Shown: positions 47,812 to 63,427 of the stretch, piece by piece
Numbering within the stretch: position 1 is the stretch's first letter
How the letters are laid out: each line of letters opens with the position of its first letter
Source: Bacteroidales bacterium
Lineage (GTDB): Bacteria; Bacteroidota; Bacteroidia; Bacteroidales; JAQUTK01
Length of the DNA stretch: 64,000 nt
Assembly: GCA_963677415.2 (NCBI GenBank)
Contig: CAXXFJ010000033.1
Span: forward strand, 24,115-88,114
Direction: 5' to 3'
Made by a program: the position numbers and the translations under genes
The notes under the pieces: model-generated
Seen by the model: only the letters and a program-made list of their open reading frames with translations
Database searches by the model: none
What the model was told of the DNA's origin: nothing

Positions 47812-48600
47812 ATGGAAAATATAGAGTTAGAGTCAGAAGAATCGTACAAAGTTCCTAATCTCGAAAAGGGAATTGCCGTCCTGGAACTTTTATCGGAACA
47901 ACCACTTGGAATGACACTGCTGGAGTTGAAAATGCAGCTGGAGATTTCACAGACAACTGCCTACCGGATATTGAATACCTTGGTTCGCTTGGGCTATCTC
48001 AACTACATAGAAACCGGAAAGAAATATAAACTTTCGCGTAAGATGCTGACCATAGGCTATCGTTCTATTCAAGAGCATAATATTATGGAAGTTGTATTGC
48101 CTAAATTAAGAGAACTGCGCGATATAGTGAAGGAAACAGTTTGCTTTGGCATTATGGGTGCTGAAAAAGGTCTTTTTATCGAACAGGCCATTGGTTCGCA
48201 TCCTTTTTGTTTTGTGTTGTCACCCGGCAAAGAGATTGACTTGCATTGCTCTGCTCCCGGCAAAGCTATCATGGCGTATCTCCCGGATAATATACGTAGC
48301 TCTTATCTTGCAAAAATGAAATACGAAGCGCACAATATCCGTACTATAACCAATGAAACAGACTATTTGAAGGAGTTGGAAAAAGTTCGCCGGCTTGGAT
48401 ATGCACTTGATATGGAAGAGGAACTTGGGGGGGTAGTTTGTATTGGTGCTCCTGTGTTTAGCTATGATGCTTATCCTTGTGGTTCTATTTGGTTATCAGG
48501 ACCTAAAGATAGATTACCGAAAGAAAAGATTCAACTGTTTGCAGCCCACTTGTTAGAGAGTACGCGTTCGGTTTCATTGGAGCTTGGATATAAAGATTAA
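47812..48600 (+). CDS. IclR-family transcriptional regulator
   Basis: 262 aa. The N-terminal wHTH is 'LEKGIAVLELLSEQPLGMTLLELKMQLEISQTTAYRILNTLVRLGYL'. A C-terminal effector domain follows. Confidence 0.85.
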   Translation: MENIELESEESYKVPNLEKGIAVLELLSEQPLGMTLLELKMQLEISQTTAYRILNTLVRLGYLNYIETGKKYKLSRKMLTIGYRSIQEHNIMEVVLPKLRELRDIVKETVCFGIMGAEKGLFIEQAIGSHPFCFVLSPGKEIDLHCSAPGKAIMAYLPDNIRSSYLAKMKYEAHNIRTITNETDYLKELEKVRRLGYALDMEEELGGVVCIGAPVFSYDAYPCGSIWLSGPKDRLPKEKIQLFAAHLLESTRSVSLELGYKD

Positions 48601-48632
48601 AAGCATTTTCAAACCAATCCATCAAAATTGAT

Positions 48633-50420
48633 ATGAAAATAATACAAGGTCTCACCTTGACGACATTACTTCTGATTGCTGCGTTAATGATGAACTTTAC
48701 GCAGCTGAAAGAAGAAGTATATACGGAAACTCCGGTTTTTGTTACTGACATTAAAGTAGCAACTAATGAGGGTGTTTTTATGTCGCAAAAAGGTACAAAG
48801 AGCGTTGTGTTATATAAGAATGACTTTTCGGCGAAAGTTCAGGAATGGGTTTTCGATGAGACACCTACTGCCATTGCTGTTACTGACAAACTTCTTTTTG
48901 TGACAACTTTTGAAACAAAAGGGCTTTTGCACATCATTGATTTAACAACGAATAAAATTGCTGCTACCATTCCGGTTTCTTCCGGAGCAACTGCTCCAAT
49001 AGTAAATGCTGATCAAAGCAAGGTATATGTGTGCAATCAGTTTGCTAATACGATTTCGGAAATAGATATTAAAAAGCAAAAAGAGCTCCGTACGGTAAAA
49101 GTGCTCCGCGAACCCCGGGCGGCAATTATCAGCCCTGACGGCAAGCTGCTGTATGTAGCCAATTATCTGCCTGCTCAACGTGCTGATGTGGATACTATAG
49201 CGGCATGTATCTCGGTAATTAATCTATCCAACTTCAAGAGGATTAAAGATATTCAATTGACGAATGGCAGCAATGCAGTACAAAGTATCTGTTTGAGTCC
49301 CGATGCGAACTATTTATTTGCCACCCACAATTTGGGCCGTTTTCAGGTTCCAACTAGTCAGCTTCAGCAAGGATGGATGAACACCAGTGCCATGAGTGTC
49401 ATTAATATTCACACTCAGATATGCGAAGGTGCAGTGTTGCTCGATGAACCGGATCGTGGTGCGGGTGGTCTTTGGTCGGTAGAATGTACTGCGCAGGAGA
49501 TCATTGTTTCGCAATATGGTACACATGAAATAAGTGTGATTGATTATCCGGCATTCATTGAAAAGTACAACAGCCTGACTGATAAATCGACATTAAATTA
49601 TGACTTGCGCTTCTTGAATGGAATCCGCCGTCGTGTTCCGCTTATTGGTAATGGTCCCCGGGCATTTGCCATTTCCGGCGATAAGGTAATCATCCCTACC
49701 TACTTTTCCGATACGGTAAATGTATATGATCTGAAAACCCAATCGATTGAGGCTTTTTCTTTAGTCAAAAACAGAGTTGAGACGGATGCTCAAAAAGGAG
49801 AGCGTTATTTCAATGATGCCAATTTTTGCTATCAAAACTGGCAATCCTGTAACGGCTGTCATCCAGGCGAAGCCAGGACAGACGGCATGAACTGGGATTT
49901 GATGAACGACGGCATTGGCAACGCCAAAAACTGCAAAAGCATGATCCTGGCTCATGAGACGCCACCTAGTATGATCTCAGGAATTCGTGAACACGCGGAA
50001 TTAGCTGTTCGCAAAGGATATAATCTTATTCAGTTTTATGAAATTCCGGAATCTAAGGCAATCTGTGTAGATACCTATCTTAAGTCACTGAAACCGGTGC
50101 CAAGTCCCTATCTGGTGGATGGGAAACTATCAGAGAAAGCAGTCAGTGGTCGTCAGGTCTTTGAAAAGTTTGATTGTACCAGATGTCATTCAGGTTCTTA
50201 TTATACGGATATGAAAATGCATCGGATCGGTGACAGTATAGAATTTGAAAAAGGCTGGGACACTCCAACTCTGATTGAAGTGTGGCGTACTGCTCCCTAT
50301 TTATTCAATGGAAAGGCAAATACGCTCAAAGATGTTTTTGAGAAGTACAAACACGGAATTGATAAGAAGATTACTGAGAAGGAGTTGGACGAACTGGTCG
50401 AATATGTAAACTCTCTCTAA
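48633..50420 (+). CDS. Exported YVTN-type beta-propeller fused to a di-haem cytochrome c peroxidase/MauG-like domain
   Basis: 595 aa with a signal peptide. The propeller repeats are 'SKVYVCNQFANTISEIDI' and 'GKLLYVANYLP'. Two CxxCH sites are present, CNGCH and CTRCH. Confidence 0.65.
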   Translation: MKIIQGLTLTTLLLIAALMMNFTQLKEEVYTETPVFVTDIKVATNEGVFMSQKGTKSVVLYKNDFSAKVQEWVFDETPTAIAVTDKLLFVTTFETKGLLHIIDLTTNKIAATIPVSSGATAPIVNADQSKVYVCNQFANTISEIDIKKQKELRTVKVLREPRAAIISPDGKLLYVANYLPAQRADVDTIAACISVINLSNFKRIKDIQLTNGSNAVQSICLSPDANYLFATHNLGRFQVPTSQLQQGWMNTSAMSVINIHTQICEGAVLLDEPDRGAGGLWSVECTAQEIIVSQYGTHEISVIDYPAFIEKYNSLTDKSTLNYDLRFLNGIRRRVPLIGNGPRAFAISGDKVIIPTYFSDTVNVYDLKTQSIEAFSLVKNRVETDAQKGERYFNDANFCYQNWQSCNGCHPGEARTDGMNWDLMNDGIGNAKNCKSMILAHETPPSMISGIREHAELAVRKGYNLIQFYEIPESKAICVDTYLKSLKPVPSPYLVDGKLSEKAVSGRQVFEKFDCTRCHSGSYYTDMKMHRIGDSIEFEKGWDTPTLIEVWRTAPYLFNGKANTLKDVFEKYKHGIDKKITEKELDELVEYVNSL

Positions 50421-50434
50421 AATATAAAATATAG

Positions 50435-51589
50435 ATGAAGAACCTGAATCTGATGATAGAGTATTTTGCAGCAGAAGCTAAACAAAGCTTCTGTGAAACG
50501 GTGCAAGCAATCATCGATCAGGTGAATGAAGGCCAACGAACACCTATTCGTTTCGTTTTTTTCGGCATTCCGCAAAATAATGAAGAGTATTCGAAAGAGT
50601 TTTCGCTCATAAAGGAACGCATACGAACGAAATTTGGCAAGCATATGCCGGTGGTGAGTTATGTAGCTCAAAAACCACTTTGCAATAATGCATTGGTGCT
50701 CGAAGCACATTGGAGTGTGGTGACGGCGGACAAAGATGTTCATCACAAGCAGGTTGATGGTGTGGATTATTTGACTGTTGAAGATGAGATATCTAAAAAG
50801 CTCTCTCTGGGTGGAATAACTTCTGTAAACAATCAGTATTCAATCTTCGATCAGTCAGTTGAAATATTTGAAAAGATAAAGAAGATCTTTGAATTGGAGA
50901 AAATGCCGGTTGACTCAATCGTTCGTCAGTGGAATTACATTGCTGATATAACGAAAGTAGTGGATGGCAAACAGCATTATCAGGAATTTAATAATGCCCG
51001 TTCGCAATTTTATGGTTTGACCTCGTGGCCAAAAGGATATCCGGCAGCTACAGGTATTGGTACGTATACTGGGGGCGTTGTGGTGGAAGTGTTTGCCGTA
51101 AAACCAAAATCACATCGGGTAGAAATCGTTCCACTGGACAATAAGCTTCAGGTGCCTCCTCATGCTTACTCGCAAGAGGTGCTGGTAGGTGATAAGGATA
51201 GTGCTAAGAAGAGCTGCACAACCCCAAAGTTTGAACGGGGGAAAGTGCTTTATATTAAGCCGGAAGCTCTGGTGTATATTTCGGGAACGGCTGCCATCAG
51301 GGGCGAAGAGAGTCTGGATGGAGTGGGAGCCGGGAGACAAACGATTGCTACTCTTGAGAATATAAACTATTTGAGATCTCCGGAGAACTTGCGTAATGCG
51401 GGTGTAAAGTGTGAAATTGCGCCCGGGATGAAAAGTCTTCGGGTCTATCTCAAGGAAAGTTCCTATTATGAGGAGGTCAAACAAGTGGTTGATAGTATGA
51501 TGCCTGATGTGCCTTCTGTGTATTTGCTGGGTGATATTTGTCGCGATAATTTATTGATAGAAATAGAAGGAATAGCAACTAATTTTTAA
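50435..51589 (+). CDS. RidA/YjgF-fold protein, FkbO/Hyg5 chorismatase-like
   Basis: 384 aa with no signal peptide. The C-terminal 'LVYISGTAAIRGEESL...RQTIATLENI' resembles the FkbO/Hyg5-RidA signature. The assignment is from memory only. Confidence 0.4.
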   Translation: MKNLNLMIEYFAAEAKQSFCETVQAIIDQVNEGQRTPIRFVFFGIPQNNEEYSKEFSLIKERIRTKFGKHMPVVSYVAQKPLCNNALVLEAHWSVVTADKDVHHKQVDGVDYLTVEDEISKKLSLGGITSVNNQYSIFDQSVEIFEKIKKIFELEKMPVDSIVRQWNYIADITKVVDGKQHYQEFNNARSQFYGLTSWPKGYPAATGIGTYTGGVVVEVFAVKPKSHRVEIVPLDNKLQVPPHAYSQEVLVGDKDSAKKSCTTPKFERGKVLYIKPEALVYISGTAAIRGEESLDGVGAGRQTIATLENINYLRSPENLRNAGVKCEIAPGMKSLRVYLKESSYYEEVKQVVDSMMPDVPSVYLLGDICRDNLLIEIEGIATNF

Positions 51590-51599
51590 TTGTATAAAG

Positions 51600-52289
51600 A
51601 TGAAAACGAAATTTATTTTAACGGCTGTCTTGACCCTCTTGTTGTGTGTATATGGGATCAGCCAGACAACGGCGCCCGCCCAAACAGCAACGCCCGCTAA
51701 AACTGCGGTCAAACAGAAAGCATTGTATGAAAAGAAATATACCAATGCTGATTATTACACCAACGGCACATTCAATCAGGAGGTTGCTTTAAAAGCAGTA
51801 TTGGATATGTTTGCTTTTTATGGTGTCGAATACACCGATTTCATGAAGAAGAATATGTTTGTTTCGGACTTTAATCTTGGTGATTTCGAGAATATTGGCA
51901 TGGCAGGTATTTTCTGGGTAAATGATGCCGAGCATAATATGTTTGGACATGAGATTTATTTGCTGCCCAACCAAATGATTGCCGAACATGCGCATGTTGC
52001 CACCACGTATCCCGCCAAACATGAAACCGGATTGGTTCGCTATGGAAGCGGCTATAATTTTAGTATTGGTGAGCCCACCTTGAATGCGCCTAAGTTGCCA
52101 GCAAGCCAAAAAGACTTTATCACTTTAAAGCATTTTGAGCCAAAGAAAGTGGGAGAGATGATTTTACTTTCAAAGATTGAGAGCAAACATTTTCTTTTTG
52201 CCGGGGATAATGGTTTAATCGTGACCGAGTTTGGTACTTATCATGACAACGCCGGACTACGGTTCACCAATCCGAAAGTTAAATTCTAA
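51600..52289 (+). CDS. Exported cupin, D-lyxose/D-mannose isomerase-family-like
   Basis: 229 aa with a signal peptide. 'VSDFNLGDFENIGMAGIFWVND' and 'HEIYLLPNQMIAEHAHV' resemble the lyxose-isomerase cupin core. Confidence 0.5.
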   Translation: MKTKFILTAVLTLLLCVYGISQTTAPAQTATPAKTAVKQKALYEKKYTNADYYTNGTFNQEVALKAVLDMFAFYGVEYTDFMKKNMFVSDFNLGDFENIGMAGIFWVNDAEHNMFGHEIYLLPNQMIAEHAHVATTYPAKHETGLVRYGSGYNFSIGEPTLNAPKLPASQKDFITLKHFEPKKVGEMILLSKIESKHFLFAGDNGLIVTEFGTYHDNAGLRFTNPKVKF

Positions 52290-52329
52290 TTTATTTCATT
52301 GTATATTAATCATTTAATCATAGCTCATT

Positions 52330-53015
52330 ATGAAGATCAAAACTATTTCAACAGCATTATTAGTCGTTATGTTAAGCGTTACATGCGTGAGTTGTACGCC
52401 AACAACTAAAACCGACAATTCATCCGATGCTACATCGGAAGTAAATGGCTATACCAAGAAGTACACCAACGCCGACTTTTACACCAATGGGGTGTTTAAT
52501 AAAGACACAGCACTAAAAGCATACTTAGACATGTTTGAATATTATGGGGTTCCTTATACCGACTTGATGAAAAAGGATATGTGGGTGACTGATTTTAACC
52601 TTGGTGACTTCGAACATGTGGGGATGGGTGGTATCTTTTGGGTGAACGATTCTATTCACAACTATTTTGGTCATGAGATCTATTTATTGCCTAACCAAAT
52701 GATTGTGGAACATGCTCACATGCCAACTCCGGGTCATGCTGCCAAGTTTGAAAGCTGGTTGGTACGTAATGGCAGTTGCTACAACTATAGCATTGGTGAC
52801 TCAACAGCAAATCCACCTCAACTTCGGAAAGTCAAAAAGGTTTTATCACCGTTTCTCACTTTGCTGAAATGAAGGTGGGTGATATTCTTCCATTGGCTCA
52901 GATTGAATCCAAGCACTTCCTGTTTGCCGGTGACAATGGACTTATTGTGACCGAGTTTGGATCTTATCACGATGGTGCCGGTCTTCGTTTTACCAACCCA
53001 AGCGTAAAGTTTTAA
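52330..53015 (+). pseudogene. Paralogous exported (lipoprotein-type) lyxose-isomerase-like cupin, -1 frame change
   Basis: The lipobox is 'LSVTCVSC'. ORF 52330-52872 diverges from paralogue 51600-52289 after 'NPPQL'. The next frame, open from 52800, reads 'ESQKGFITVSHFAEMKVGDILPLAQIESKHFLFAGDNGLIVTEFGSYHDGAGLRFTNPSVKF*' and restores homology. The junction is at 52822-52827 (cttcgg). Confidence 0.65.
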
Positions 53016-53056: not shown

Positions 53057-53401
53057 ATGAGAAAATTAAATCATTTCGGAATTCCGACTCAGACCGTACA
53101 AGCTGGTGAGAATTATGCTGAAGGACTGAAAGTGCATTTGACTGACTTTAGCAAGAGTGAAAACAAGATTGAGTTTCTTCGTTTTGAAGAAGGTTCGTGC
53201 ATGCCGGATATTATACAGAAGGTGGCACATATAGCGTATGAAGTTCCTGATATGAAAGCTGCACTTGAAGGAAAGAATGTAATCGTCGAACCGATGGAAG
53301 GTGGTCCCGGTTTGCAAATTGCTTTCATTGTGGAAGAAGGAATTCCTATCGAACTGATGTGTTTTGATAGTAGTGTACAAAGACCCCAATCAGCTTATTA
53401 A
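53057..53401 (+). CDS. VOC (glyoxalase/bleomycin-resistance/dioxygenase) family small protein
   Basis: 114 aa. 'LNHFGIPT' at the N-terminus and 'VAHIAYEV...IAFIVEEGIPIELM' fit paired beta-alpha-beta-beta-beta modules. Confidence 0.55.
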   Translation: MRKLNHFGIPTQTVQAGENYAEGLKVHLTDFSKSENKIEFLRFEEGSCMPDIIQKVAHIAYEVPDMKAALEGKNVIVEPMEGGPGLQIAFIVEEGIPIELMCFDSSVQRPQSAY

Positions 53402-53420: not shown

Positions 53421-54440
53421 ATGACAACAAAAATCATGAATAAGTTCATCAATGAACCAGCAAATATTACAGCAGAGTTACTGGAAGGTTATGTAATGGC
53501 GTATCGCGACATAGTAACTCTTGATGGTGAAAACACCGTAGTGCGTGTGCATGCAAAATCGCAGGACAAAGTGGCCATCGTAACATTAGGCGGTGCCGGT
53601 CACGAACCTGCATTAAGCGGTTTTGTCGGCGAAGGAATGCTGGATTGTTCGGTGGTTGGCGACGTATTTGCAGCACCCGGTGCACAGCGTTTATATCAGG
53701 CTTTGCTGAAATTTAAACGTGAAGCAGGCATTTTATTGGTGGTTTTGAACCATTCCGGCGATGTGATGAGTGCTAATATGGCTTGTCAGCTGGCAGAACG
53801 TGCGGGTATTAAAGTGAAGCAAATAGTTACACACGAAGATATCAGTGCCGGTTTGAATACACCGGATAGTGATCGTAGAGGATTGGCCGGTTGTATTCCA
53901 CTTTACAAGATTGTAGGTGCAGCTGCTGAGGATGGTAAATCGTTGGATGAGATTATTGAGATAGGTGAACGTTTCAATCAACAAATTGCAACGCTGGCTG
54001 TGGCAATGGGTTCTTGTACACATCCGCAAAACGGTGTTACGATCGCCCAGTTGGCTCCCGGTGAGATGGAAATCGGAATGGGACAACACGGTGAAGGTGG
54101 TGGCGGACGTCAGATGCTTATATCGGCTGATGATACGGCTGAGAAAATGGTGACGCAACTGATGGCTAAGATTCAACCCAAAGCCGGCGACAAAGTGCTG
54201 TTGTATATCAATGGAGTAGGAGCAACTACCATGATGGAAATGAATATCATTTTCCGCAAAGCATGTCAGGTGTTGGAAGCAACCGGAGCAAGTGTGGTGG
54301 AAAGCCGTATCGGCGAGATGCTGACTGTGCAGGAATCTGCCGGTTTTCAGATGTTGTTGGCTAAACTGGATGCTGATCACGTTGAACTGTTGAAAGATAG
54401 AAAAGCAAATTCACCTTTTTGGATAACCATTGGCAAATAA
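53421..54440 (+). CDS. dhaK: Dihydroxyacetone kinase, DhaK (substrate-binding) subunit
   Basis: 339 aa. 'TLGGAGHEPALSGFVGEGMLDCSVVGDVFAAP' is the canonical DhaK motif. Confidence 0.9.
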   Translation: MTTKIMNKFINEPANITAELLEGYVMAYRDIVTLDGENTVVRVHAKSQDKVAIVTLGGAGHEPALSGFVGEGMLDCSVVGDVFAAPGAQRLYQALLKFKREAGILLVVLNHSGDVMSANMACQLAERAGIKVKQIVTHEDISAGLNTPDSDRRGLAGCIPLYKIVGAAAEDGKSLDEIIEIGERFNQQIATLAVAMGSCTHPQNGVTIAQLAPGEMEIGMGQHGEGGGGRQMLISADDTAEKMVTQLMAKIQPKAGDKVLLYINGVGATTMMEMNIIFRKACQVLEATGASVVESRIGEMLTVQESAGFQMLLAKLDADHVELLKDRKANSPFWITIGK

Positions 54441-54443
54441 GTG

Positions 54444-55079
54444 ATGGAAAAGCTGACAATTGATGATTTCAAAAGAATGATTGCCGTGGCTCTGGATCAT
54501 ATAACAGCCCGTTCGGATGAGTTTTCGGCTCTGGATGCTGTTATTGGTGACGGCGATCATGGCACGGCAATCGTTCAGGCATTAAAAGCGGTTACAGAAG
54601 CAGCCGATAGAGGTGTAGAGTTCAAAGCTATGCTTGACGATGTGGGTTTTAATGTGATGATGCAAACAAGTGGTTCGACCAGCACATTGCTCGGTGGTTT
54701 CTTCCTCGGAATGAGCGATTCCGTAACAGGTACCGAACTCACATCAGCCGAAGTGGTGGCGATGTTTCGTGGTGCTTTAGAGGGCGTGAAGAAACAAACA
54801 AAAGCTTTAAAAGGGGATAAAACTATGATGGATGCGTTGATTCCTGCTATCGAAGCAATGGAAGCTTGTACGTCAACTGATATTAAGAAAATAATGCGTG
54901 CCGGTGCTGATGCTGCTTTGCAAGGTGCATCTGAAACGATACAAATGAAAGCCAATTTTGGCCGTGCCCGTAATTATGGCGAAAAGTCAATAGGATATGC
55001 AGACTCAGGTGCTGCTTCATGGGCCTGTATGTTTGATTCATTTGCAACGGCATTAGAGACAAATGGAGTGGACAACTAA
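54444..55079 (+). CDS. dhaL: Dihydroxyacetone kinase, DhaL (nucleotide-binding) subunit
   Basis: The ATG lies 4 nt after the dhaK stop. The 'LDAVIGDGDHGTAI' motif is present. About 211 aa. Confidence 0.9.
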   Translation: MEKLTIDDFKRMIAVALDHITARSDEFSALDAVIGDGDHGTAIVQALKAVTEAADRGVEFKAMLDDVGFNVMMQTSGSTSTLLGGFFLGMSDSVTGTELTSAEVVAMFRGALEGVKKQTKALKGDKTMMDALIPAIEAMEACTSTDIKKIMRAGADAALQGASETIQMKANFGRARNYGEKSIGYADSGAASWACMFDSFATALETNGVDN

Positions 55080-55128: not shown

Positions 55129-56001
55129 ATGGCAGATTTAGATGATTTAAGAGAAGGTAATAAATTTGGAATTGGACAGGCTGTTCAAAATCAATCGTTT
55201 CATATTAAGGGAGCAGACAATTTATCGTGGGGAAAGAAAGACCGTCTGACACGAATCTTTAATCCGAAGTCGGGAAGAACTGTCATGCTGGCTTTCGATC
55301 ATGGCTTTATTATGGGACCAACGTCGGGTGTGGAGAGAATCGACATAACAATTGCTCCATTGATGGAATATGCTGACTGCTTGATGTGTACACGAGGTAT
55401 TTTGCAATCATCGGTACCAGCCAATACCAACAAACCAATTTGCTTGCGTTCAGATGCCGGCACTACCATCCTGACTGAATTAAACGATAATGTAGTCATT
55501 GATGTTGAAGATGCTATTCGCCTGAATGTATCTGCTATGGCTGTGATGCTGGCCATTGGTGATCCTGAGATGGAAGCTAAAACCATTGCCAATCTATTTA
55601 GAGCTGTTGATTCAGGCTCAAGATATGGTATTCCGGTCATGGGTGTTACCGCAGTGGGAAAAGATATGGCTCGTGATGCACGTTACTTTGGTTTGGCGTC
55701 ACGTGTTTGTGCTGAGAATGGAGCCAATATCGTGAAGACATATTACTGCGAGGGTTTTGAGAATGTCGTGGCTTGCTGTCCGGTGCCTATTGTAATAGCA
55801 GGTGGTAAGAAGTTGCCGGAAAGAGATGCATTGGAGCTGTGCTATAAGGCTATCAATGATGGTGCAGCCGGTGTAGATATGGGGCGCAATGTGTTTCAAT
55901 CTGAAGATCCGATAGCGATGATTCAGGCTGTTCATGCGTTGGTGCACGAGAATTTGTCTGTTGATCAGGCTTTTCAGATGTTTAATGATTTGAAGAAATA
56001 A
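55129..56001 (+). CDS. lsrF: LsrF-type class I aldolase-fold enzyme (3-hydroxy-5-phosphonooxypentane-2,4-dione thiolase-like)
   Basis: 290 aa. 'MADLDDL..G', 'RIFNPKSGRTVMLAFDHGF..GPTSGVERIDITIAPL..YADCLMCTRGIL', 'IVKTYY' (Schiff-base Lys) and 'CPVPIVIAGGKKLPERDALE' track my recollection of E. coli LsrF along the whole length. Confidence 0.75.
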   Translation: MADLDDLREGNKFGIGQAVQNQSFHIKGADNLSWGKKDRLTRIFNPKSGRTVMLAFDHGFIMGPTSGVERIDITIAPLMEYADCLMCTRGILQSSVPANTNKPICLRSDAGTTILTELNDNVVIDVEDAIRLNVSAMAVMLAIGDPEMEAKTIANLFRAVDSGSRYGIPVMGVTAVGKDMARDARYFGLASRVCAENGANIVKTYYCEGFENVVACCPVPIVIAGGKKLPERDALELCYKAINDGAAGVDMGRNVFQSEDPIAMIQAVHALVHENLSVDQAFQMFNDLKK

Positions 56002-56002
56002 G

Positions 56003-56923
56003 ATGAAAATGAGATTGCTCCTTGTTTGCTTTGCATTGTTTGGCTTAAATGCTGCTCAATCGGCAGAAACCTATCTTTTAATAGCAGGATCGGGTACTAA
56101 AGACGTGTCCATCTTTCAAAAATCGACGAAGAAGATCATTTGGAGTCATGATCTTGAAGCGGGTCAGGAATGCAACAGTGTTGCCATGAACAAGAAGGGT
56201 GAGGTTCTGTATTCTTATAAACAAGGAGCCAAACTCATCTCACTCGATCATAAAGTGATCTGGGATTATACCTGTTCTGAAGGATCAGAGTTGCAGTTAG
56301 CATCGGTTTTACCGGATGGTGGATACTTACTTGGTATTTGTGGCCACCCGGCAAAAATAGTGGAGTTGGATAAATACGGAGTGGTTCGGAAAGAACTTTC
56401 TATAAATATCAATGTTCAAGCTCCGCATCAACAGTTTCGTAGAATCTCAAAAGCTAAAAACGGAAACTATATTCTTCCAATCTTAGAAACCAATGAGATT
56501 CTGGAAATTGACAAGAACGGGAAAGAGATAAACCGGTTGAATGTGGCTGCCGGCTGTTTTGCAGCCCTGGAACTGAAAGATGGTAATTTACTCGCTTCTG
56601 GTGGTGATTCACATCAATTTATGACAGTAAACCGACAAACAGGTGAGATATCAGGTCGTGTGACTCAGAATGATATTGAAGGTGTTTCTTTGCTGTATGT
56701 TGCTCAAATAAGGGTACTTGATAATGGCAATCTATTACTATGCAACTGGCAGGGACACAATCGTGAGGCTGGTGTAGATGAACCTCAACTTGTCGAAATA
56801 GATCGGGAGAATAAGGTCGTGTGGTCATTGAATGATAAAAAGAGTTTCGACAAAATCTCATCTGTTTTCATCATTTCTCCCGATAAATCATTTACTATTT
56901 TCCTCAAAAAACTTAATCGCTGA
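56003..56923 (+). CDS. Exported beta-propeller protein (PQQ/BamB-like repeats), unknown function
   Basis: 306 aa that starts 2 nt after the lsrF-like stop. It has a signal peptide and repeated 'G.(V/I)LW' type blades. Confidence 0.5.
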   Translation: MKMRLLLVCFALFGLNAAQSAETYLLIAGSGTKDVSIFQKSTKKIIWSHDLEAGQECNSVAMNKKGEVLYSYKQGAKLISLDHKVIWDYTCSEGSELQLASVLPDGGYLLGICGHPAKIVELDKYGVVRKELSININVQAPHQQFRRISKAKNGNYILPILETNEILEIDKNGKEINRLNVAAGCFAALELKDGNLLASGGDSHQFMTVNRQTGEISGRVTQNDIEGVSLLYVAQIRVLDNGNLLLCNWQGHNREAGVDEPQLVEIDRENKVVWSLNDKKSFDKISSVFIISPDKSFTIFLKKLNR

Positions 56924-56928: not shown

Positions 56929-59055
56929 ATGAAAAAAATCAACTTATTACTGGTAATTGCACTCATCGGTGGTCAAGCACTGATGGCTCTACCAACAAAG
57001 AAAATAGTTGCTTCCACTTGGACCAGTGCTGCGGCAGCTTATAAAGTGGAACTTCTTGCAAAGCAAAAGGCTGTAGGGTTTCCAATAGAATCGGGCGAAG
57101 TAAAGAAAGGTGAGTTAAAGAAGATTACAGCCAAAGTCGCTAATCTGGATTATATCGTACTGGTTGTCACCGCTAAGAAAGGTGAGAAGAAATGCAATGA
57201 TGCCATTTGGGTCAACGCCAAAGTCTATGAAAAAGATGGAAAAGCGATTAATATCAGTGACTTGAAAATTAGTGGCCAAGCAAAACTGAATCAAAATTCC
57301 GGCGAAAAAGAAGTTGTGATTAATAAAAACAAAGTCAGCAACTCGATTTTGTCAAGTACCAGTAAGTATATATATATTCCCTTGGATAAGAAGTATGTAC
57401 GCTTTGAATCTGAGATTGGTATAGATGACAATAGTAAAGATAGTACTGCCATTTTCAGAATTCAGAGCGAGAGTGGTCAGAAAGAATTCAACGAACTGTC
57501 TGAACGTTTTCCGGAAGATTGTAATGCTTTTTTTCCTCTTTGTCCGACTACAGGCCAGTGTTGGTTGTCAAATGGTACGGCAAATGAGGATGAGGTAATT
57601 ATAAAAGAACTTCTCAACCGGTTAAAAGAAAAAGTATATTTTAATGATGAATTGACCAAGATCGCCAGCCTTCCGGCAGCAAAACAAACAGAGGCTTATT
57701 TGTCACTTTTCAAAGATCTGTCAGATGTAATAAAGATTCAGTCTGAGGTGGACTGGATAAATATCGAATCCATTCAATTGGCTTTCGATGATATGAAGAA
57801 GAATGCATCGTTTAATGCCGCTGTCAATCAGGAAAAGTTAAACCAACTCAGCTCGTTGGTGAAAGCTGGTTTCGAGGGTCTTTGCATGAATAATAAGGAC
57901 GCTATTGCCCATGCAAGCAAAGCCATTGCACTTAAAAAAGAGATTCTGTTAGCCAATCCTTTGTTTGATATGGATAAGATCATTGTAGGAAAATATAAAG
58001 TAGGATACAATGCGCGATCGGTGAATGTTTCTTCATTAGGCACAGAGCCTGCCAACTGGAGCTGCTTAATGTCTGCCAATAGGAAAGGCTTTAAAGCCGA
58101 GATTGCTGAACTTTCCAATTTACGTGGGGAATTGCGCTCAACCACCCTCTTCAAAGCACAAAACAACTCCTCCCTTCCGCATATTCGCTTAAACTGGAAT
58201 GCGGATCATATTTTGTTTACCATGTCAAATGCAGATGGCTTGTGGCAGGTTTATGAAGTGGATATGGAGGGTAAAAATCTCCGCCAGGTAATCAAATCAA
58301 CAGAACCGGATCTGGAGTTCTTTGATGCGACTTATCTGCCCAATGGCAAAATTATAGCTGTGTCCAATATAGGATATTTAGGAGTACCTTGTGTAGATGG
58401 TAGTGATATTGCAGGGAACATGGTGTTATATGATCAAAATACGGATGATCTTCGCCGTATCACTTTTGATCAGGAAAGCAATTGGGGACCTATCGTAATG
58501 AACAACGGCCGTGTCATGTACACACGTTGGGAATATACCGATCTGACTCACTATTTTTCGCGTATTGTGATGCATATGAATCCTGATGGAACCGAGCAAA
58601 AAGCCTTGTACGGAAGCGGTTCGTATTTCCCCAATAGTACATTTGATATCAAACCACTGCCAGGCAACGGAACTCGTTTTGTTGGAATTATTTCAGGCCA
58701 TCACGGTGTAGTTCGTGCGGGTCGTATGCTGATTTTCGATCCATCAATTGCTCGGAAAAATGCAGATGGGATTGTTCATGAATTCCCTTATCGCAACCGT
58801 AAAGTGGTGCCAATCATTAAGGATGAATTAGTGAATGGTGTATGGCCACAATTTATTAAGCCGTATCCATTGAATGAAAATTATTATCTTGTTACTGCAA
58901 AGCTGACTCCGGATGGTTTATGGGGGATATATTTGGTGGATACATTTGATAACCTTACCCTGTTGAAAGAAGCGGAAGGAGAAGGCTATATTCATGCTAC
59001 CCCGGTAACAAAAACAGCTGTACCTCCAATAATCCCGGATAAAATCAAACTTTAA
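56929..59055 (+). CDS. Exported NPCBM-like domain + helical region + TolB/hydrazine-synthase-alpha-like beta-propeller protein
   Basis: 708 aa with a signal peptide. 'KYIYIPLDKKYVRFESEIGIDDNSKDSTAIFRI' is NPCBM-like. The propeller segment is 'GRVMYTRWEYTDLTHYFSRIVMHMNPDGTEQKALYG'. Confidence 0.5.
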   Translation: MKKINLLLVIALIGGQALMALPTKKIVASTWTSAAAAYKVELLAKQKAVGFPIESGEVKKGELKKITAKVANLDYIVLVVTAKKGEKKCNDAIWVNAKVYEKDGKAINISDLKISGQAKLNQNSGEKEVVINKNKVSNSILSSTSKYIYIPLDKKYVRFESEIGIDDNSKDSTAIFRIQSESGQKEFNELSERFPEDCNAFFPLCPTTGQCWLSNGTANEDEVIIKELLNRLKEKVYFNDELTKIASLPAAKQTEAYLSLFKDLSDVIKIQSEVDWINIESIQLAFDDMKKNASFNAAVNQEKLNQLSSLVKAGFEGLCMNNKDAIAHASKAIALKKEILLANPLFDMDKIIVGKYKVGYNARSVNVSSLGTEPANWSCLMSANRKGFKAEIAELSNLRGELRSTTLFKAQNNSSLPHIRLNWNADHILFTMSNADGLWQVYEVDMEGKNLRQVIKSTEPDLEFFDATYLPNGKIIAVSNIGYLGVPCVDGSDIAGNMVLYDQNTDDLRRITFDQESNWGPIVMNNGRVMYTRWEYTDLTHYFSRIVMHMNPDGTEQKALYGSGSYFPNSTFDIKPLPGNGTRFVGIISGHHGVVRAGRMLIFDPSIARKNADGIVHEFPYRNRKVVPIIKDELVNGVWPQFIKPYPLNENYYLVTAKLTPDGLWGIYLVDTFDNLTLLKEAEGEGYIHATPVTKTAVPPIIPDKIKL

Positions 59056-59075
59056 TACACACAAACTTATTGATC

Positions 59076-60980
59076 ATGTTTAAAATAAGACTTCTGTTCA
59101 TTGCATGTATAACTTCGCAATTTCTTTCTGCTCAAGGAGAGAAAGAACGTGCCAAAAATGCTGTCGTATTTATCCAGGATATTTACGAAGGTGAAGGCTT
59201 GAAAGGTGTACCTCGAGGAACAGTCAAAGCCATACGCATATTGAATTACGAGTTTGCATATATAAAATCACCCTCTAACAATAATGCTCAAGGTGTTCAA
59301 AGTGGTTGGGATATTAAGCGCTCATTAGGCGAAGTGCCTGTTGAAGCAGATGGATCCGTTCTGTTTAATGTTCCATCGAATACGCCAATTTCATTTCAAC
59401 CGCTTGATGCTGAAGGTAGAGCTCTTCAATTAATGCGTAGCTGGACAACCGGAATGCCGGGAGAAGTGATCTCTTGTACCGGTTGTCATGAAAATCAAAA
59501 CCAGATACCAATGCCTAAGCGTTCCATTGCTTCAGGTAAAGCTCCTTCTTCATTGATCAAACCAGTGGGTGGGGTACGACCATTTACATTTGAAATGGAA
59601 GTGCAGCCTGTGCTCGACCGTGCTTGTATTGCTTGTCATAATGGAAATGGTACTATCTCAGATCTTACAGGTGGTCGTTTTGATGAATCGACTAAGTATG
59701 GCAAAAGTTACCTTAATCTTCATCCCTATGTTTTTCGTCAAGGTCCCGAAGCTGAAATGGAAGTGCTGAATCCGTATGAATATCATGCTTCTGTGAGTCC
59801 ACTGATCCAAATGCTGAAGAAGGGGCATCATAATGTGCAACTCACAGACAAAGAATGGCGTACTTTATATAACTGGATTGATTTTAATGCTCCTTTTAAC
59901 AGTACATTTCAGGCCGTTGATTATAAAGGTGTTGATCAAATCAAACGAAGGATGGAGCTGTATGATAAATATGGTGGAAATTCCAGTATCGATTGGCAAG
60001 GCGAGATCGTTGCTTATGCAGATTATCTGAAAAAGCAACCTAAAATTGTTCCAGTTAAACCAGTTGAGCTGGTTGCAAAATCAGTGAAAGAAGTGAAACT
60101 GAAAGGTTGGCCATTTGGTGTCGATGATGTAACCCGGATGTTGGCAAAAGAAAGGGAAACAAAAAAAACAATTGATCTTGGAGATAGTATAAAAATGAAC
60201 TTTGTTCGTATCCCTGCCGGAAAGTTTGTGATGGGTAAGAATGGAACTTCTGATTATTCACCGGCGAGTATTGCCAAAATTGATAAGGGATTTTGGATGG
60301 CAGAAATAGAGGTGAGCAACGAACAAATGCGTGCCATCTTACCAGAACACAATAGCCGTTTTATACAGCAACAATGGAAAGATCACGTCGGACCTGGATA
60401 TATTGCAAACAGTCCGAAACAACCTGCCATTCGTATGACATGGAACGAAGCCATGGATTATTGTAAAAAGCTAAGTGAGAAAACTGGTTTGAAGTGTACC
60501 TTGCCAACAGAAACACAATGGGAGTGGGCATGTAGAGCAGGATGTGAAACTGACTTTTGGTATGGAAATTTGAATACTAGTTTTGCTCCTTATGAAAATA
60601 TGGCAGATAAACAGCTAAATAAATTGGCAGTTAGTGGTGTTGATCCACAGCCTCAATCTGAAAATTGGTTTTGGTATAAATATTATACGTATCAACCCAA
60701 GGATAATACTGTCGACGATGGTTCATTCTTAACAGTGCAAGGTGCAAAATATCAGTCGAATGCTTTTGGGTTGTATGATATGCATGGAAATGTGTCTGAG
60801 TGGACTCGCTCCGATTATGTGCCCTATCCTTTGAAGAAGAATGCGACTAATGATCTGAAAGTAGTAAGAGGAGGTTCGTGGATTGATCCACCCAAGACTT
60901 CTACCAGTTATTTCCGTAAGTCTTTTTTGCCTTGGCAGAGTGTTCATAATGTAGGTTTCCGGGTGATTATTGAAGAGTAA
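59076..60980 (+). CDS. Exported protein with two c-type haem sites and a C-terminal FGE-sulfatase (SUMF1/EgtB-like) domain
   Basis: The ATG at 59076 gives the signal peptide MFKIRLLFIACITSQFLSAQ. CxxCH sites are CTGCH and CIACH. FGE-type motifs are 'WEWACRAG', 'GLYDMHGNVSEWT' and 'VVRGGSW'. Confidence 0.65.
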   Translation: MFKIRLLFIACITSQFLSAQGEKERAKNAVVFIQDIYEGEGLKGVPRGTVKAIRILNYEFAYIKSPSNNNAQGVQSGWDIKRSLGEVPVEADGSVLFNVPSNTPISFQPLDAEGRALQLMRSWTTGMPGEVISCTGCHENQNQIPMPKRSIASGKAPSSLIKPVGGVRPFTFEMEVQPVLDRACIACHNGNGTISDLTGGRFDESTKYGKSYLNLHPYVFRQGPEAEMEVLNPYEYHASVSPLIQMLKKGHHNVQLTDKEWRTLYNWIDFNAPFNSTFQAVDYKGVDQIKRRMELYDKYGGNSSIDWQGEIVAYADYLKKQPKIVPVKPVELVAKSVKEVKLKGWPFGVDDVTRMLAKERETKKTIDLGDSIKMNFVRIPAGKFVMGKNGTSDYSPASIAKIDKGFWMAEIEVSNEQMRAILPEHNSRFIQQQWKDHVGPGYIANSPKQPAIRMTWNEAMDYCKKLSEKTGLKCTLPTETQWEWACRAGCETDFWYGNLNTSFAPYENMADKQLNKLAVSGVDPQPQSENWFWYKYYTYQPKDNTVDDGSFLTVQGAKYQSNAFGLYDMHGNVSEWTRSDYVPYPLKKNATNDLKVVRGGSWIDPPKTSTSYFRKSFLPWQSVHNVGFRVIIEE

Positions 60981-61015
60981 ATCTAATAGTCTAATAACAT
61001 AAAGAATCTACCAAT

Positions 61016-63427
61016 ATGAAAAACAAATGGATGCAACAAGCGAAAGCTCAAATAAATATCCCGGGGGTATTTATTTGTACGGCAATTTCTGTACTCTCTT
61101 TTTTCCCCTTTTCTGTAAAGGCTCAGCTTAATTCATCGGTAAAGAAATCCGATTCGTCATGGATTAACGTTTCCGAAAGTCTTGGATTTCCATTAGGAGG
61201 AATAGGAACAGGTTATTCTGCTTTTGGAAGATATGGCTTTGTGCGGGTAAACTTTGACGGACGACCATACGATGGATTAGATGTAAGTCAATGGGAGTAT
61301 AACGCTGAGTATGTGCTTCGTAATGACACTTCATTTCAGAAAGTGGAGGAACAATGGATGAAAGCTCAGAAAGCTGATCCTCCGCTGGAGGCCAGTGCTC
61401 TTGAGAAGTTGAAGCGAAAATATGAGAATGCCGCAAGAGTTCACAAGATGGCTACTGCTCCGGAAGGTTTTGTACAGTCTTCTTATGGATTCACGCTGTC
61501 TGAAGGAAATAAATCTTACATTGTTCAAACCACTCCTGCAAACTGGAAAAAAGAGGCCACACCGTTTGAGAGTGCAAAAGTGTCGGCGTGCCTGCCTAAG
61601 GGCTTGGCTGTGTTTTCCGATAAAGAGGCAAAGCTTCAAGTGAGTGTCAGAGCATTCACTCCTTTGATACCTCATGATTTGGAGAGTTCGACCTTGCCGG
61701 TTCAGGTCTATGATGTGAAGGTCAAAAATACAGGAAAAACGGCCCGACAACTGAGTCTTTGCTTAGAGAATGGTACTCCTGGTACATCAGCATCTGATCG
61801 TACTGTGTTCACTTTTTCTTCTGGCGAGATGGTGTTTGCTGCAAATACTGGTACTGCATCGGAGAAAGGTGTCTCCGTAAAGCTTTCACTGGCACCAGGA
61901 GGTGAAGTGACAAAAAGGTTTTATATCTCCTGGCACTTTCCAAAGATAGACGGTTATAAAAGATATTATACACTGGCAATGCCAAATGCATCGGCTGTAA
62001 TAGATAAAGCCATGAAAGATGCTTCTCAATGGAGCAACAAAATTGATGCATGGCATAATTCTGTTCAAGTTCCTGCTTACTTAAAACGTGTTTGGTTTGG
62101 CTCTTTGGCTTCTATTATGACTTCTACATTCATGACGACAGATCCATATTTCTTTGAAATAGAAACACCTCATGGCTGTCTGAATACCATGGATGTTTGT
62201 GTTTATTCTGGATGGGTTTACATGATTAATTGGCCAGAACTTGAACGAATGGATATGAGTCAATTTTTTAAAGCTACACCCAAAACAGGAGAGAATGCCG
62301 GATTGATTATGCACGCCCTTTGGAATGATGCGGCTCATTATGTGGAAGAACCCACCTTTATGTGCCGCATGCGCCGGGATGCTCTTTGGTTTAACGATCC
62401 AGCATTTACCCGCGAAGGTTTTGATGTCTCTGTCCTGGCTGCCAATCGTGTTTACAATCTTGACAATTATGAAAATCTCATTCAAAGTAAGCATGGTAAT
62501 CAGAGTTATGATGCCTGGAAGATGCCTGGTGTAAGTAGTTATGTGAACTCAGCTTGGGTGTATGGTCTTGATGCATTGAAATCAATGGCTGCCGGATTGG
62601 GTGAAACGAATGTGATAGTCGGCTCTATTCCTCTTGACGAGATGCTTACAAAGGCACGTGCCAGCTATGACAGACTATTGTGGAATCCACAGACAAAGGC
62701 CTGGAATCTTTTTTATCGCACGGAAGGTTCTGCTCAGGAAAATACGCCTGAAACATTATTCACCGATCAACTTTTTGGACTTTGGGTAGCAGCGATCGAT
62801 CGTAATGCTAAGGAGGTATTGCCATCAGAGAAAATAAAGTTAGCACTTAACTCGCTATACATTAACAATATGGTTGAAGATAAGACACAAAATTTCCGTG
62901 GTTGGGTCAATGGCATGAAACCAAACCGTGTTCCTGATTATACGATTAATGGCTACCATGCACGAACATGCTGGTTTGGCGCACAGATTAATCTCAGTTC
63001 GCTGCTCGGATATATGGGCAATGAAGTTGCATCGATTGATATCATGCGTTCCATAGATATGAGTTTGAAAAACAATCATTTTGCTGCAGGAGAATGGAAT
63101 GGATCTATTAATGCAAAAGGTGAAGTACTTCCCTTACCGGAAGAAACGGCTAAGGATACTCCGCGTTTTGCACCCTATCCCCGCTACAAATCTTCTTGGG
63201 AATATCTTATTCGCCTTCTTGGTTTGCAGATGGATGAAAAGGCACTTTATCTGCAACCTTTCAAAACAGTGGATTTTCGTTTCGGGGATATACAACTCGC
63301 CGGAAAGAAAATGAATATCACCGTTGAAGCAGGTTGGAAGCGTGTCTTGGTAGATGGTAAGAAAGTAAGTTTGCCCGTGAGCATTCCAAGGACAAATGAG
63401 AGTGTGAGAGTAGAGTTTCTAAAATAA
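61016..63427 (+). CDS. GH116-like glycoside hydrolase (N-terminal beta-sandwich + (alpha/alpha)6 DUF608-type domain)
   Basis: 803 aa with a signal/TM segment. 'LGFPLGGIGTGYSAFGRYGF' is the GH116 N-domain signature. Confidence 0.55.
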   Translation: MKNKWMQQAKAQINIPGVFICTAISVLSFFPFSVKAQLNSSVKKSDSSWINVSESLGFPLGGIGTGYSAFGRYGFVRVNFDGRPYDGLDVSQWEYNAEYVLRNDTSFQKVEEQWMKAQKADPPLEASALEKLKRKYENAARVHKMATAPEGFVQSSYGFTLSEGNKSYIVQTTPANWKKEATPFESAKVSACLPKGLAVFSDKEAKLQVSVRAFTPLIPHDLESSTLPVQVYDVKVKNTGKTARQLSLCLENGTPGTSASDRTVFTFSSGEMVFAANTGTASEKGVSVKLSLAPGGEVTKRFYISWHFPKIDGYKRYYTLAMPNASAVIDKAMKDASQWSNKIDAWHNSVQVPAYLKRVWFGSLASIMTSTFMTTDPYFFEIETPHGCLNTMDVCVYSGWVYMINWPELERMDMSQFFKATPKTGENAGLIMHALWNDAAHYVEEPTFMCRMRRDALWFNDPAFTREGFDVSVLAANRVYNLDNYENLIQSKHGNQSYDAWKMPGVSSYVNSAWVYGLDALKSMAAGLGETNVIVGSIPLDEMLTKARASYDRLLWNPQTKAWNLFYRTEGSAQENTPETLFTDQLFGLWVAAIDRNAKEVLPSEKIKLALNSLYINNMVEDKTQNFRGWVNGMKPNRVPDYTINGYHARTCWFGAQINLSSLLGYMGNEVASIDIMRSIDMSLKNNHFAAGEWNGSINAKGEVLPLPEETAKDTPRFAPYPRYKSSWEYLIRLLGLQMDEKALYLQPFKTVDFRFGDIQLAGKKMNITVEAGWKRVLVDGKKVSLPVSIPRTNESVRVEFLK

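Follow-up and report, generated by a model that had tools for sequence, protein, structure and literature searches.

Within a 64,000-nt stretch of a Bacteroidales contig (CAXXFJ010000033.1, positions 24,115 to 88,114; hereafter the window, whose numbering is used throughout), we analyzed a gene cluster that is headed by an IclR-family regulator and encodes, side by side, a two-subunit Dak-type kinase, an LsrF-type thiolase and exported haem proteins resembling hydrazine synthase. The cluster comprises 13 co-directional plus-strand open reading frames (ORFs) of at least 110 aa at positions 47812-63427, without competing long ORFs, and extends over ∼15.7 kb from the IclR gene to a terminal hairpin. 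A first-pass annotation, made from the letters of this stretch, had described fourteen plus-strand ORFs running from an IclR regulator to a 20-bp-stem terminator with spacing of 1-50 nt; the IclR head and the strong hairpin were recovered and the tight spacing was borne out by measured gaps of 0-49 nt, whereas the ORF count is 13. The single exception, 184 nt of seemingly intergenic sequence following 52872, belongs to a second, frameshifted cupin gene whose 3' part continues out of frame, and the true gap is 41 nt. With a GC content of 0.415 in the cluster against 0.407 in the window, there is no hint of a foreign island. For comparison, we scanned species-representative genomes, which yielded 66 loci (designated L and a number below), using tblastn with all window proteins.

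Control region and borders of the cluster

The regulator gene (47812-48600, plus strand) was assigned to the IclR family by matches to HTH_IclR (4.3e-12) and IclR_C (4.1e-35), and an IclR gene also stands at the head of the cluster in L001-L003, L006-L010, L064 and L070. The promoter/operator region in front of it (47773-47818, plus strand) contains the Bacteroidota -7 motif TATATTTG at 47775-47782, which is the sole intergenic TAnnTTTG in the cluster and overlaps an inverted repeat, followed by two palindromic boxes, GTTCAAATATGGAAA at 47785-47799 and TTTCAAATATGGAAA at 47804-47818, the second of which overlaps the IclR start codon. The exact palindromic 15-mer TTYCAWATATGRAAA occurs once in the 64-kb window, where it spans this start codon, and a one-mismatch copy lies 19 nt upstream.

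We searched 1.29 Mb of related loci on both strands with one mismatch allowed. Of the loci that include the IclR 5' end, 16 with the window, 12 have the box 8-9 nt ahead of the IclR start, three have it displaced (L006, L023, L070) and L015 lacks it; there was a single off-target match in the entire 1.29 Mb. A second box lies ∼19 nt further upstream in four loci, namely the window, L010, L064 and L002, the last being the closest relative ('Bacteroidales bacterium STD2_118'). The box is coding in part, where it includes the ATG-GAA start; the half upstream of this and the second box lie outside coding sequence. Taken together, the box pair represents a strong phylogenetic footprint of a candidate operator, and the IclR protein probably binds both palindromes over its own promoter and start codon.

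At the opposite border, a hairpin at 63465-63517, to which no strand is assigned, has a 20+4 bp stem with a dG of -37.8 kcal/mol and a z of -8.9, and none of 200 shuffled sequences folded as well. It abuts a convergent tRNA-Lys gene (63512-63585, minus strand), the sole match of an Rfam scan, and is likely a two-way terminator between the cluster and the tRNA gene. The hairpin is not followed by a T-tract and was therefore missed by the consensus terminator scan. Consensus scans were in any case at chance level (promoter-like sites: 38 observed, 42 expected; terminator-like sites: 14 observed, 12.2 expected), the consensus being unsuited to Bacteroidota. One -7 motif with an operator-like box pair at the head and one strong hairpin at the tail fit, and to that extent support, the single transcription unit suggested earlier.

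The LsrF, DhaK/DhaL and VOC core

The gene at 55129-56001 (plus strand) encodes an LsrF-type 3-hydroxy-5-phosphonooxypentane-2,4-dione (P-HPD) thiolase, which scored 467.6 bits against the equivalog model NF006081 (cut-off 297), matched PDB entry 3GKF with an E of 1.9e-109 and shows 57% identity across 292 aa to LsrF of E. coli. A conserved lysine aligns with the residue that we take to be the Schiff-base Lys203 of the E. coli enzyme. The best 120 matches were to Bacteroidales relatives at 79-100% identity, and close relatives are very numerous. This score speaks for the first-pass proposal of a cytoplasmic phosphorylation followed by cleavage to dihydroxyacetone phosphate (DHAP), which, as a prediction from sequence, is the best-founded part of the interpretation developed below.

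Using tblastn with the E. coli proteins, we found none of LsrK, LsrG, LsrR and LsrACDB in the 64-kb window or in the ∼10-kb flanks of any Bacteroidales locus; LsrK was found solely at an Acidimicrobiaceae locus (L038), and LsrB, LsrC and LsrD gave no matches anywhere in the loci searched. Since LsrK, LsrG and LsrB are missing near Bacteroidales LsrF, another kinase and another isomerase are required, and both a DhaK/DhaL pair and a vicinal oxygen chelate (VOC) protein adjoin.

DhaK, the substrate-binding subunit of the Dak-type kinase (53421-54440, plus strand; Dak1 5.5e-96), is followed with a 0-nt gap by the nucleotide-binding subunit DhaL (54441-55079, plus strand; Dak2 8.7e-37), and the motifs GGxGHEP, SGD and HGE, which we take to be the substrate-binding motifs of the E. 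coli proteins, are present by eye. Separate DhaK and DhaL subunits are shared with known dihydroxyacetone (Dha) kinase operons, but the window lacks the DhaM of those depending on the phosphotransferase system. The regular occurrence of the DhaKL pair beside LsrF and the VOC protein argues for a hydroxy-ketone substrate larger than dihydroxyacetone. Dak-type kinases require a hydroxyl near a carbonyl; by analogy, HPD, the unphosphorylated form of P-HPD, would meet this requirement directly, and 4,5-dihydroxy-2,3-pentanedione (DPD) would meet it as glyceraldehyde does.

The small, putatively cytoplasmic VOC-fold metalloenzyme (53057-53401, plus strand) gave nothing significant in Pfam, no NCBIfam match and, in PDB sequence searches, at best a weak glyoxalase I profile match (E 0.002). 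It was recognized by its AlphaFold2 (AF2) model, with a mean predicted local distance difference test score (pLDDT) of 92.5, whose best folds were BH1468, methylmalonyl-CoA epimerase and Ni-glyoxalase I (template modeling, TM, score ∼0.65), and by an invariant H/E/H/E pattern (H6, E39, H58 and E99) in alignments of relatives, in which the protein measures ∼105 aa. Methylmalonyl-CoA epimerase and glyoxalase I shift a proton via a metal-bound enolate or enediolate, and on the strength of the model the VOC protein is likely an isomerase or epimerase. Together with DhaKL it would, by analogy, take the place that LsrG (isomerase) and LsrK (kinase) have in E. coli.

Firmicutes contigs (Phascolarctobacterium, Fusicatenibacter, Faecalibacterium) contain DhaL-DhaK-LsrF-VOC and a SorC-type regulator only, and their LsrF also lies above the equivalog cut-off (403.7 bits). 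That just these four genes and a regulator are carried marks DhaL-DhaK-LsrF-VOC as a self-contained module. Two further candidates were discarded, namely a Firmicutes locus thought to mirror every Lsr part, the upstream genes of which belong to tetrapyrrole biosynthesis and the downstream ABC transporter of which is TrpX-like, and a 429-aa LsrF homologue (P0102) considered as a domain fusion, the sequence of which is of the E. coli type and internally duplicated.

The Lsr pathway of E. coli and Salmonella (lsrACDBFG, lsrRK) has LsrF in common with the window cluster, in which a kinase and a likely enediol isomerase adjoin it, and the underlying logic of kinase, isomerase and thiolase leading to DHAP can be the same in both. 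Where Lsr has LsrK (an FGGY kinase), LsrG, LsrACDB and LsrR, the window cluster has instead a kinase of the Dak type with two subunits, a VOC protein and, as regulator, IclR, and exported haem proteins and a cupin come in addition. To our knowledge, LsrF has been known only from quorum-signal degradation. It is conceivable, though unlikely, that the cluster serves an Lsr-independent uptake and destruction of autoinducer-2 (AI-2; DPD), with the VOC protein in place of LsrG, DhaKL in place of LsrK, LsrF retained, and the exported proteins capturing or isomerizing DPD and its furanone forms. Here, LsrF would be what its model indicates, an equivalog of the AI-2 pathway enzyme, for which we know of no substrate other than P-HPD; the kinase, isomerase and thiolase roles would all be covered, and the Firmicutes version has a regulator of LsrR's family, SorC, and occurs in gut taxa such as Phascolarctobacterium, which is not known to ferment sugars. 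This regulator, however, scored no better for LsrR (68.9 bits) than for DeoR (91.1 bits), the ABC system beside the Firmicutes module resembles TrpX, and no LsrB-type receptor was found at the loci searched. Moreover, a four-haem complex, a carbohydrate-binding module, a family 116 glycoside hydrolase (GH116) and a dedicated cytochrome c synthase would be superfluous for AI-2.

Verrucomicrobial LsrF homologues (64-69% identical) have neighbors of three kinds. In L033, a protein with Planctomycete-cytochrome-c and formylglycine-generating enzyme (FGE)-fold domains (5962-7509) is encoded ∼2.5 kb upstream of the LsrF homologue, in L037 a 3-keto-disaccharide-hydrolase-like plus cytochrome c protein directly downstream (10892-14146), and in L036 a xylose-isomerase-like TIM barrel directly downstream (10926-11951). 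These neighbors speak less for a role confined to AI-2 than for a broader connection of LsrF with keto-sugar metabolism linked to cytochrome c.

A paralogue of the VOC protein (P0331, 51% identical) was encountered in 342 collection blocks. On three human gut metagenome contigs (L073-L075; gene at 10001-10315) it lies in a sugar locus with genes for RhaT, an enolase-superfamily enzyme, GH127, three sulfatases, an aldehyde dehydrogenase, the VOC protein, an HpcH aldolase, a PfkB kinase and a KDPG-type aldolase, and a TraG gene adjoins. The locus recalls what we take to be the layout of seaweed (anhydrogalactose) utilization loci, and the small VOC family may be a general, unrecognized sugar-pathway enzyme.

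Exported haem proteins, cupins and accessory parts

The gene following that of the regulator (48633-50420, plus strand) encodes an exported 595-aa protein composed of a beta-propeller and a di-haem domain resembling those of cytochrome c peroxidase (CCP) and MauG, with CXXCH motifs at residues 406 and 515. Its propeller matched the beta subunit of hydrazine synthase (HZS; 5C2V_B, E 7.1e-19) and its di-haem domain the gamma subunit (5C2V_C, E 1.9e-15), and among the NCBIfam models the beta-gamma fusion scored best (82.6 bits against a cut-off of 1250), ahead of gamma (64.9 against 625) and beta (61.3 against 560). By these matches, the protein is a homologue of the HZS beta-gamma fusion.

A counterpart of the alpha subunit is distributed over two genes. 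The first (56929-59055, plus strand) encodes 708 aa comprising a signal peptide, an NPCBM domain (5.8e-7), a helical linker and a beta-propeller; it gave no PDB sequence match, and a profile search with the propeller returned just weak TolB and designed-propeller matches. The top PDB fold found by Foldseek for its AF2 model (pLDDT 91.6) was, however, HZS alpha (5C2V_A, E 1.4e-13, 423 columns), above the TolB propellers. The second gene (59070-60980, plus strand) encodes 636 aa with HZS_alpha (5.7e-35) and FGE-sulfatase (PF03781, 6.4e-38) domains and CXXCH motifs at residues 136 and 186, CTGCH and CIACH aligning with CSGCH and CAMCH of 5C2V_A; the NCBIfam score for HZS alpha is 34.9 bits against a cut-off of 800. 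In the ten relatives examined, both ORFs form a single protein of 1090-1330 aa and are split only in the window (56929-60980) and in L002 (11796-15857), and the 636-aa ORF has a signal peptide of its own, newly gained (MIMFKIRLLFIACITSQFLSAQ). As judged from this comparison, the 708-aa and 636-aa ORFs are the halves of one HZS-alpha-like gene after gene fission. By homology, the cluster encodes counterparts of all three HZS subunits, with four haem motifs in total.

The FGE-fold domain is nearest to PvdO, SUMF2 and PorK, with FGE also among the PDB matches. True FGEs carry a catalytic cysteine pair after the RGGS motif; the final 66 residues of the 636-aa ORF, including all those after RGGS (...VVRGGSWIDPPKTSTSYFRKSFLPWQSVHNVGFRVIIEE), are devoid of cysteine, and a true formylglycine-generating enzyme was rejected, the catalytic cysteines being absent. 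A true hydrazine synthase was likewise rejected: the scores are far under the cut-offs, the haem alpha-I tyrosine is absent, and NPCBM and FGE-fold domains are added. In HZS alpha this ligand is Tyr591, four residues past the CXXCH histidine, according to a Genome Biol Evol 2025 article (PMC12758564, December 2025), and no tyrosine is found at His+4 of the first haem motif (CTGCH-ENQN) or within 8 residues, in an ungapped alignment extension that is moderately reliable.

With hydrazine synthase (5C2V), the window proteins nevertheless share the alpha propeller, the HZS_alpha middle domain with two aligned CXXCH motifs, the beta propeller and the gamma di-haem domain. The fused beta-gamma arrangement is as in Scalindua, and the co-localization of alpha-like and beta-gamma-like genes as in the homologue clades published there (PMC12758564). 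That article reports co-localized alpha and fused beta-gamma genes in Planctomycetota, Desulfobacterota and a few other anaerobes, with key catalytic residues not conserved; its main text names Bacteroidota for beta-gamma homologues only and makes no mention of LsrF or Dha kinase (PMC12758564). Unlike hydrazine synthase, the window genes are part of a putative Bacteroidales carbon-catabolic operon, and their products carry the added NPCBM and FGE-fold domains.

The haem proteins also bear on another, quite unlikely explanation, a stress-defence operon in which CCP-like proteins remove H2O2, NO or hydroxylamine while the VOC protein, the Dha kinase and the aldolase remove compounds of the dihydroxyacetone/methylglyoxal type. 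The CCP/MauG-like di-haem domain and the glyoxalase I-like VOC fold would suit such a role, hydrazine synthase handles NO and hydroxylamine, and a catalase gene (12236-13717) lies between LsrF and the alpha-like gene inside the cluster carried by L029, a 54%-GC verrucomicrobial contig binned as Akkermansia. It would leave no role for the ever-present exported cupin, the NPCBM module and the LsrF equivalog, and both the low HZS scores and the lack of a counterpart to Tyr591 (PMC12758564) in the same position speak against it.

The cluster of B. salyersiae and of 21 other loci includes a gene for CcsBA, a cytochrome c synthase in which ResB and CcsA are fused, but the window cluster lacks it; its presence within the cluster of relatives speaks for the haem proteins being produced and being of importance. 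L020 ('Coprobacillus sp. CAG:698') has a CcsBA with 89% identity to the B. salyersiae protein and is probably a misbinned Bacteroides contig. An alpha-like relative on a Kiritimatiellae contig has an F5/8-type-C domain fused to it and an IclR gene adjoining, another in Thermoguttaceae adjoins GH123, and two tandem copies of the alpha-like gene are present in L003, L006 and L070.

The first of two cupin genes (51600-52289, plus strand) encodes an exported D-lyxose/D-mannose-isomerase-like protein without Pfam or NCBIfam match, identified by its similarity to 7NZO (E 1.7e-14) and 2Y0O (E 6.3e-10), with the former of which it aligns an EHxH...ET...H metal motif (HxH, E and H ligands). Most cupin orthologues carry lipoprotein signal peptides, and these signals together with the conserved metal ligands would suit an isomerase role outside the cytoplasm; export of a sugar-isomerase-like cupin would be unusual compared with the known enzymes. 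The second cupin gene, a paralogue of the first (52330-53015, plus strand), is frameshifted, with frames at 52330-52872 and 52800-53015. A 1-nt deletion lies near 52840 (CTTCGGAAAG; an intact frame needs one base more), and the second frame encodes the conserved C-terminus ...FLFAGDNGLIVTEFGSYHDGAGLRFTNPSVKF, so that the copy is a pseudogene unless the assembly is in error. L002 has a single intact cupin, with 87% identity to cupin 2 and 64% to cupin 1.

Among the remaining parts, the gene at 50435-51589 (plus strand) encodes a cytoplasmic FkbO/Hyg5-chorismatase-like protein of the RidA superfamily (FkbO_Hyg5-like_N 6.4e-13, Ribonuc_L-PSP 6.1e-7), which is absent from the closest relative L002, and the gene at 56003-56923 (plus strand) an exported Mala_s_1-like beta-propeller (PF22701 4.5e-48) with a signal peptide seen by eye. 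The last gene (61016-63427, plus strand) encodes an exported GH116-like glycoside hydrolase (catalytic domain 7.9e-28, N-terminal domain 9.5e-23), which recurs only in L002 (same position, 85% identical) and, divergent (27% identical) and fragmented, in L001. We regard the FkbO-like protein, an accessory part, as well as cupin 2 and GH116 as lineage-specific additions.

Every family assignment of the first-pass annotation was reproduced, the families recovered being IclR, propeller with two CXXCH motifs, FkbO_N/RidA, Dak1, Dak2, DeoC/LsrF, Mala_s_1, NPCBM, HZS_alpha with FGE, GH116, lyxose-isomerase-like cupin and VOC. The proteins that it labelled "peroxidase" and "c-haem/FGE-like" are homologues of HZS beta-gamma and alpha, respectively, and the FGE-like domain lacks the catalytic cysteines. 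The NPCBM-propeller and c-haem/FGE proteins, there counted as separate, are one gene split in two, and of the two exported cupins the first stands while the second is a frameshifted copy.

Conservation, interpretation and surroundings

To assess conservation, we restricted the count to 22 loci, each from a different species, in which LsrF was at least 73% identical and the flank on either side measured 7 kb or more. The cupin and DhaL were present in all of them (22/22 each), VOC, DhaK and the HZS-alpha-like/FGE protein in 20/22, the Mala_s_1 propeller in 17/22, CcsBA in 16/22 and the FkbO-like protein in 14/22; the propeller/di-haem protein was found in at least 13/22 and IclR in at least 10/22, both counts being limited by flank length. 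GH116, by contrast with its earlier inclusion in the set, is present in 2/22 and is not core. There are at least three gene orders, in which exported and cytoplasmic genes are interleaved: IclR, propeller/haem, FkbO, cupin, VOC, DhaK, DhaL, LsrF, Mala, alpha-like and, in parentheses, CcsBA (order A, CcsBA being optional); FkbO, cupin, alpha-like, CcsBA, VOC, DhaK, DhaL, LsrF and Mala (order B); and cupin, VOC, DhaK, DhaL, LsrF, alpha-like, Mala and propeller/haem (order C). Recurrence of the same gene set in 20-22 of 22 other species places the arrangement beyond chance, and by conserved synteny, the yardstick the first-pass annotation had chosen for itself, the cluster behaves as a unit.

Cultured carriers include Bacteroides salyersiae DSM 18765, B. 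nordii JCM 12987 and B. neonati MS4, and a complete 7.2-Mb genome (L070) has order A followed by SusC/SusD. A reduced set consisting of IclR, a cupin without signal peptide, CcsBA, DhaL and LsrF was found in Rikenellaceae metagenome-assembled genomes (L023, L024, L026).

That the exported haem system and the cytoplasmic Dha-kinase/aldolase set are unrelated modules, adjacent by mere chance, is highly unlikely in our estimation. The four-gene cytoplasmic module does occur alone in Firmicutes, and HZS_alpha/FGE proteins occur without it in Planctomycetota and Kiritimatiellae; yet the two are together in 20 of 22 species despite at least three interleaving rearrangements, and also across a phylum boundary, and in the window they share one head regulator with a conserved operator-like box and gaps of 0-49 nt.

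The reading that we favor, with a confidence that stops a little short of even, is a conserved, IclR-controlled catabolic operon working in two compartments, in which an HZS-like complex and a cupin act outside the cytoplasm, and isomerization, phosphorylation and LsrF thiolysis follow inside. Outside, a four-haem complex made of the alpha-like subunit (split here, with its NPCBM sugar-binding module and FGE-fold domain) and the beta-gamma-like propeller/di-haem subunit would act, along with the cupin lipoprotein and the Mala_s_1 propeller, on a carbohydrate-derived substrate, most likely by a redox step and an aldose-ketose isomerization giving a small keto- or diketo-sugar. CcsBA, where encoded in the cluster as in many relatives, would mature the haem proteins. 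In the cytoplasm, the VOC metalloenzyme would shift the carbonyl via an enediol, as LsrG does in the Lsr pathway, its order relative to the kinase step being provisional; DhaK/DhaL would phosphorylate with ATP a terminal hydroxyl beside the carbonyl; and the LsrF-type thiolase would cleave the 2,4-diulose phosphate with CoA to DHAP and an acyl-CoA, which would be acetyl-CoA if the enzyme acted, like its E. coli counterpart, on the C5 compound P-HPD. The link to carbohydrate is drawn because NPCBM is fused to the alpha-like protein here, F5/8-type-C is fused to one relative and GH123 adjoins another, GH116 is found in three lineages, SusC/SusD follow the cluster in L070, and verrucomicrobial LsrF has the neighbors described above. 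A narrower version, which we regard as doubtful, makes the HZS-like alpha/beta-gamma pair a new exported, c-haem-dependent carbohydrate-active redox enzyme, possibly peroxide-driven like MauG, that feeds a keto-sugar through the VOC-DhaKL-LsrF route to DHAP and acyl-CoA.

Several points weigh against the two-compartment reading. Gene content, homology, conservation and the operator footprint were established directly, whereas localization, chemistry and substrate were inferred; signal peptides were called by eye only. Several proteins fall below their equivalog cut-offs: IclR is under every NCBIfam cut-off (best BhcR, 149.7 bits against 350), as are DhaK (TIGR02363, 286.7 against 406.25) and DhaL (TIGR02365, 128.2 against 138.3), and the FkbO-like protein (TIGR04444, 110.5 against 325) has a related fold but by score is not a chorismatase. 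DhaK, VOC and the haem proteins were not detected in the Rikenellaceae variant (two loci so counted), and the ABC transporter beside the Firmicutes module, which resembles a system with a tryptophan-binding protein (366 bits; cut-off 390), is possibly unrelated to it. By Pfam, there is no inner-membrane transporter among the cluster genes, which leaves the route from the periplasm to the kinase without a carrier; no electron donor or acceptor is evident for the haem complex; and Bacteroidales are anaerobes. Finally, the article on non-anammox hydrazine-synthase homologues assigns no function to them (PMC12758564).

In the full-text literature searched, the coverage of which is incomplete and hence no proof, we found no description of the cluster and no link between LsrF and a Dha kinase, in agreement with the earlier remark that no characterized locus matches the set. 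Apparently, this is a widely conserved, undescribed operon with parts from known families that brings homologues of hydrazine synthase into the same metabolic context as an LsrF equivalog. For the question whether relatives of the key enzyme of anammox have another job, a tight operon with predictable chemistry provides a concrete metabolic setting, and its occurrence in the cultured Bacteroides of the human gut named above may make genetics and enzymology feasible. LsrF with a different kinase and isomerase is widespread in Bacteroidales, Verrucomicrobiota and gut Firmicutes, meaning that either many gut bacteria consume AI-2 by an unrecognized route or LsrF-type cleavage is part of an uncharted sugar pathway. 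Should the c-haem redox enzyme be real, it would be the first physiological function of non-anammox hydrazine-synthase homologues, and LsrF chemistry would be a general sugar-catabolic step and not specific to AI-2.

Like Bacteroidota polysaccharide utilization loci (PULs) and periplasmic keto-sugar pathways, the favored two-compartment operon has exported carbohydrate-binding or glycosidase-like parts, lipoproteins and a cytoplasmic finishing route. PULs are controlled by hybrid two-component systems, SusR or extracytoplasmic function (ECF) regulators, whereas the window cluster has IclR, and a Pfam search of its 13 ORFs found no SusC/SusD pair, as had been noted from the start; the keto-sugar pathways use NAD- or FAD-dependent oxidoreductases where the window has c-type haem proteins.

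The window as a whole is rich in carbohydrate-active enzyme (CAZyme) genes, with members of families GH106, GH43 (four), GH10, GH8 and GH2 (three, besides a truncated copy), and with genes for an esterase and a major facilitator superfamily (MFS) transporter. On a further explanation, which makes the first-pass idea more specific and to which we give a low probability, these neighboring glycosidases would free one rare plant cell-wall sugar, deoxy or branched (for instance a 5-deoxy-pentose, aceric acid or a 6-deoxy-hexose), that is isomerized and oxidized outside to a methyl diketone. The abundance of GH106, GH43, GH10, GH8, GH2 and esterase genes would fit, the cupin is a sugar isomerase homologue, and an acetyl-CoA-yielding thiolase would presumably need a methyl-ketone end as given by deoxy sugars. 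However, the flanking CAZyme genes are not conserved beside the cluster in other species, no glycosidase specific for such sugars is found among the core members, and the cluster occurs in mucin-/host-associated as well as sediment lineages. GH2 lies beside it in no other locus but L002 at most, and PNPOx only in L002, which makes any argument from the surroundings weak; the role that the first-pass annotation had argued from the neighboring genes for degradation of xylan and pectin side chains is weakened accordingly.

Elsewhere in the window, a tandem pair of large GH106 alpha-L-rhamnosidase genes occupies 4238-11274 (991 and 1340 aa), and two overlapping plus-strand ORFs (15358-16002 and 15935-17359) may be one frameshifted gene. 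Between CAZyme genes lie an AAA_14/DUF4143 ATPase gene (24290-25552) and a HipA-like toxin kinase gene (26310-27467). A low-GC stretch (0.31-0.36) at 32000-36000 contains a minus-strand DDE transposase fragment (DUF4372 and DDE_Tnp_1; 34604-35299), surrounded by ORFs without Pfam match. Past the tRNA-Lys gene, a TonB-dependent-receptor-like ORF begins at 63722 and runs off the window end (64000).

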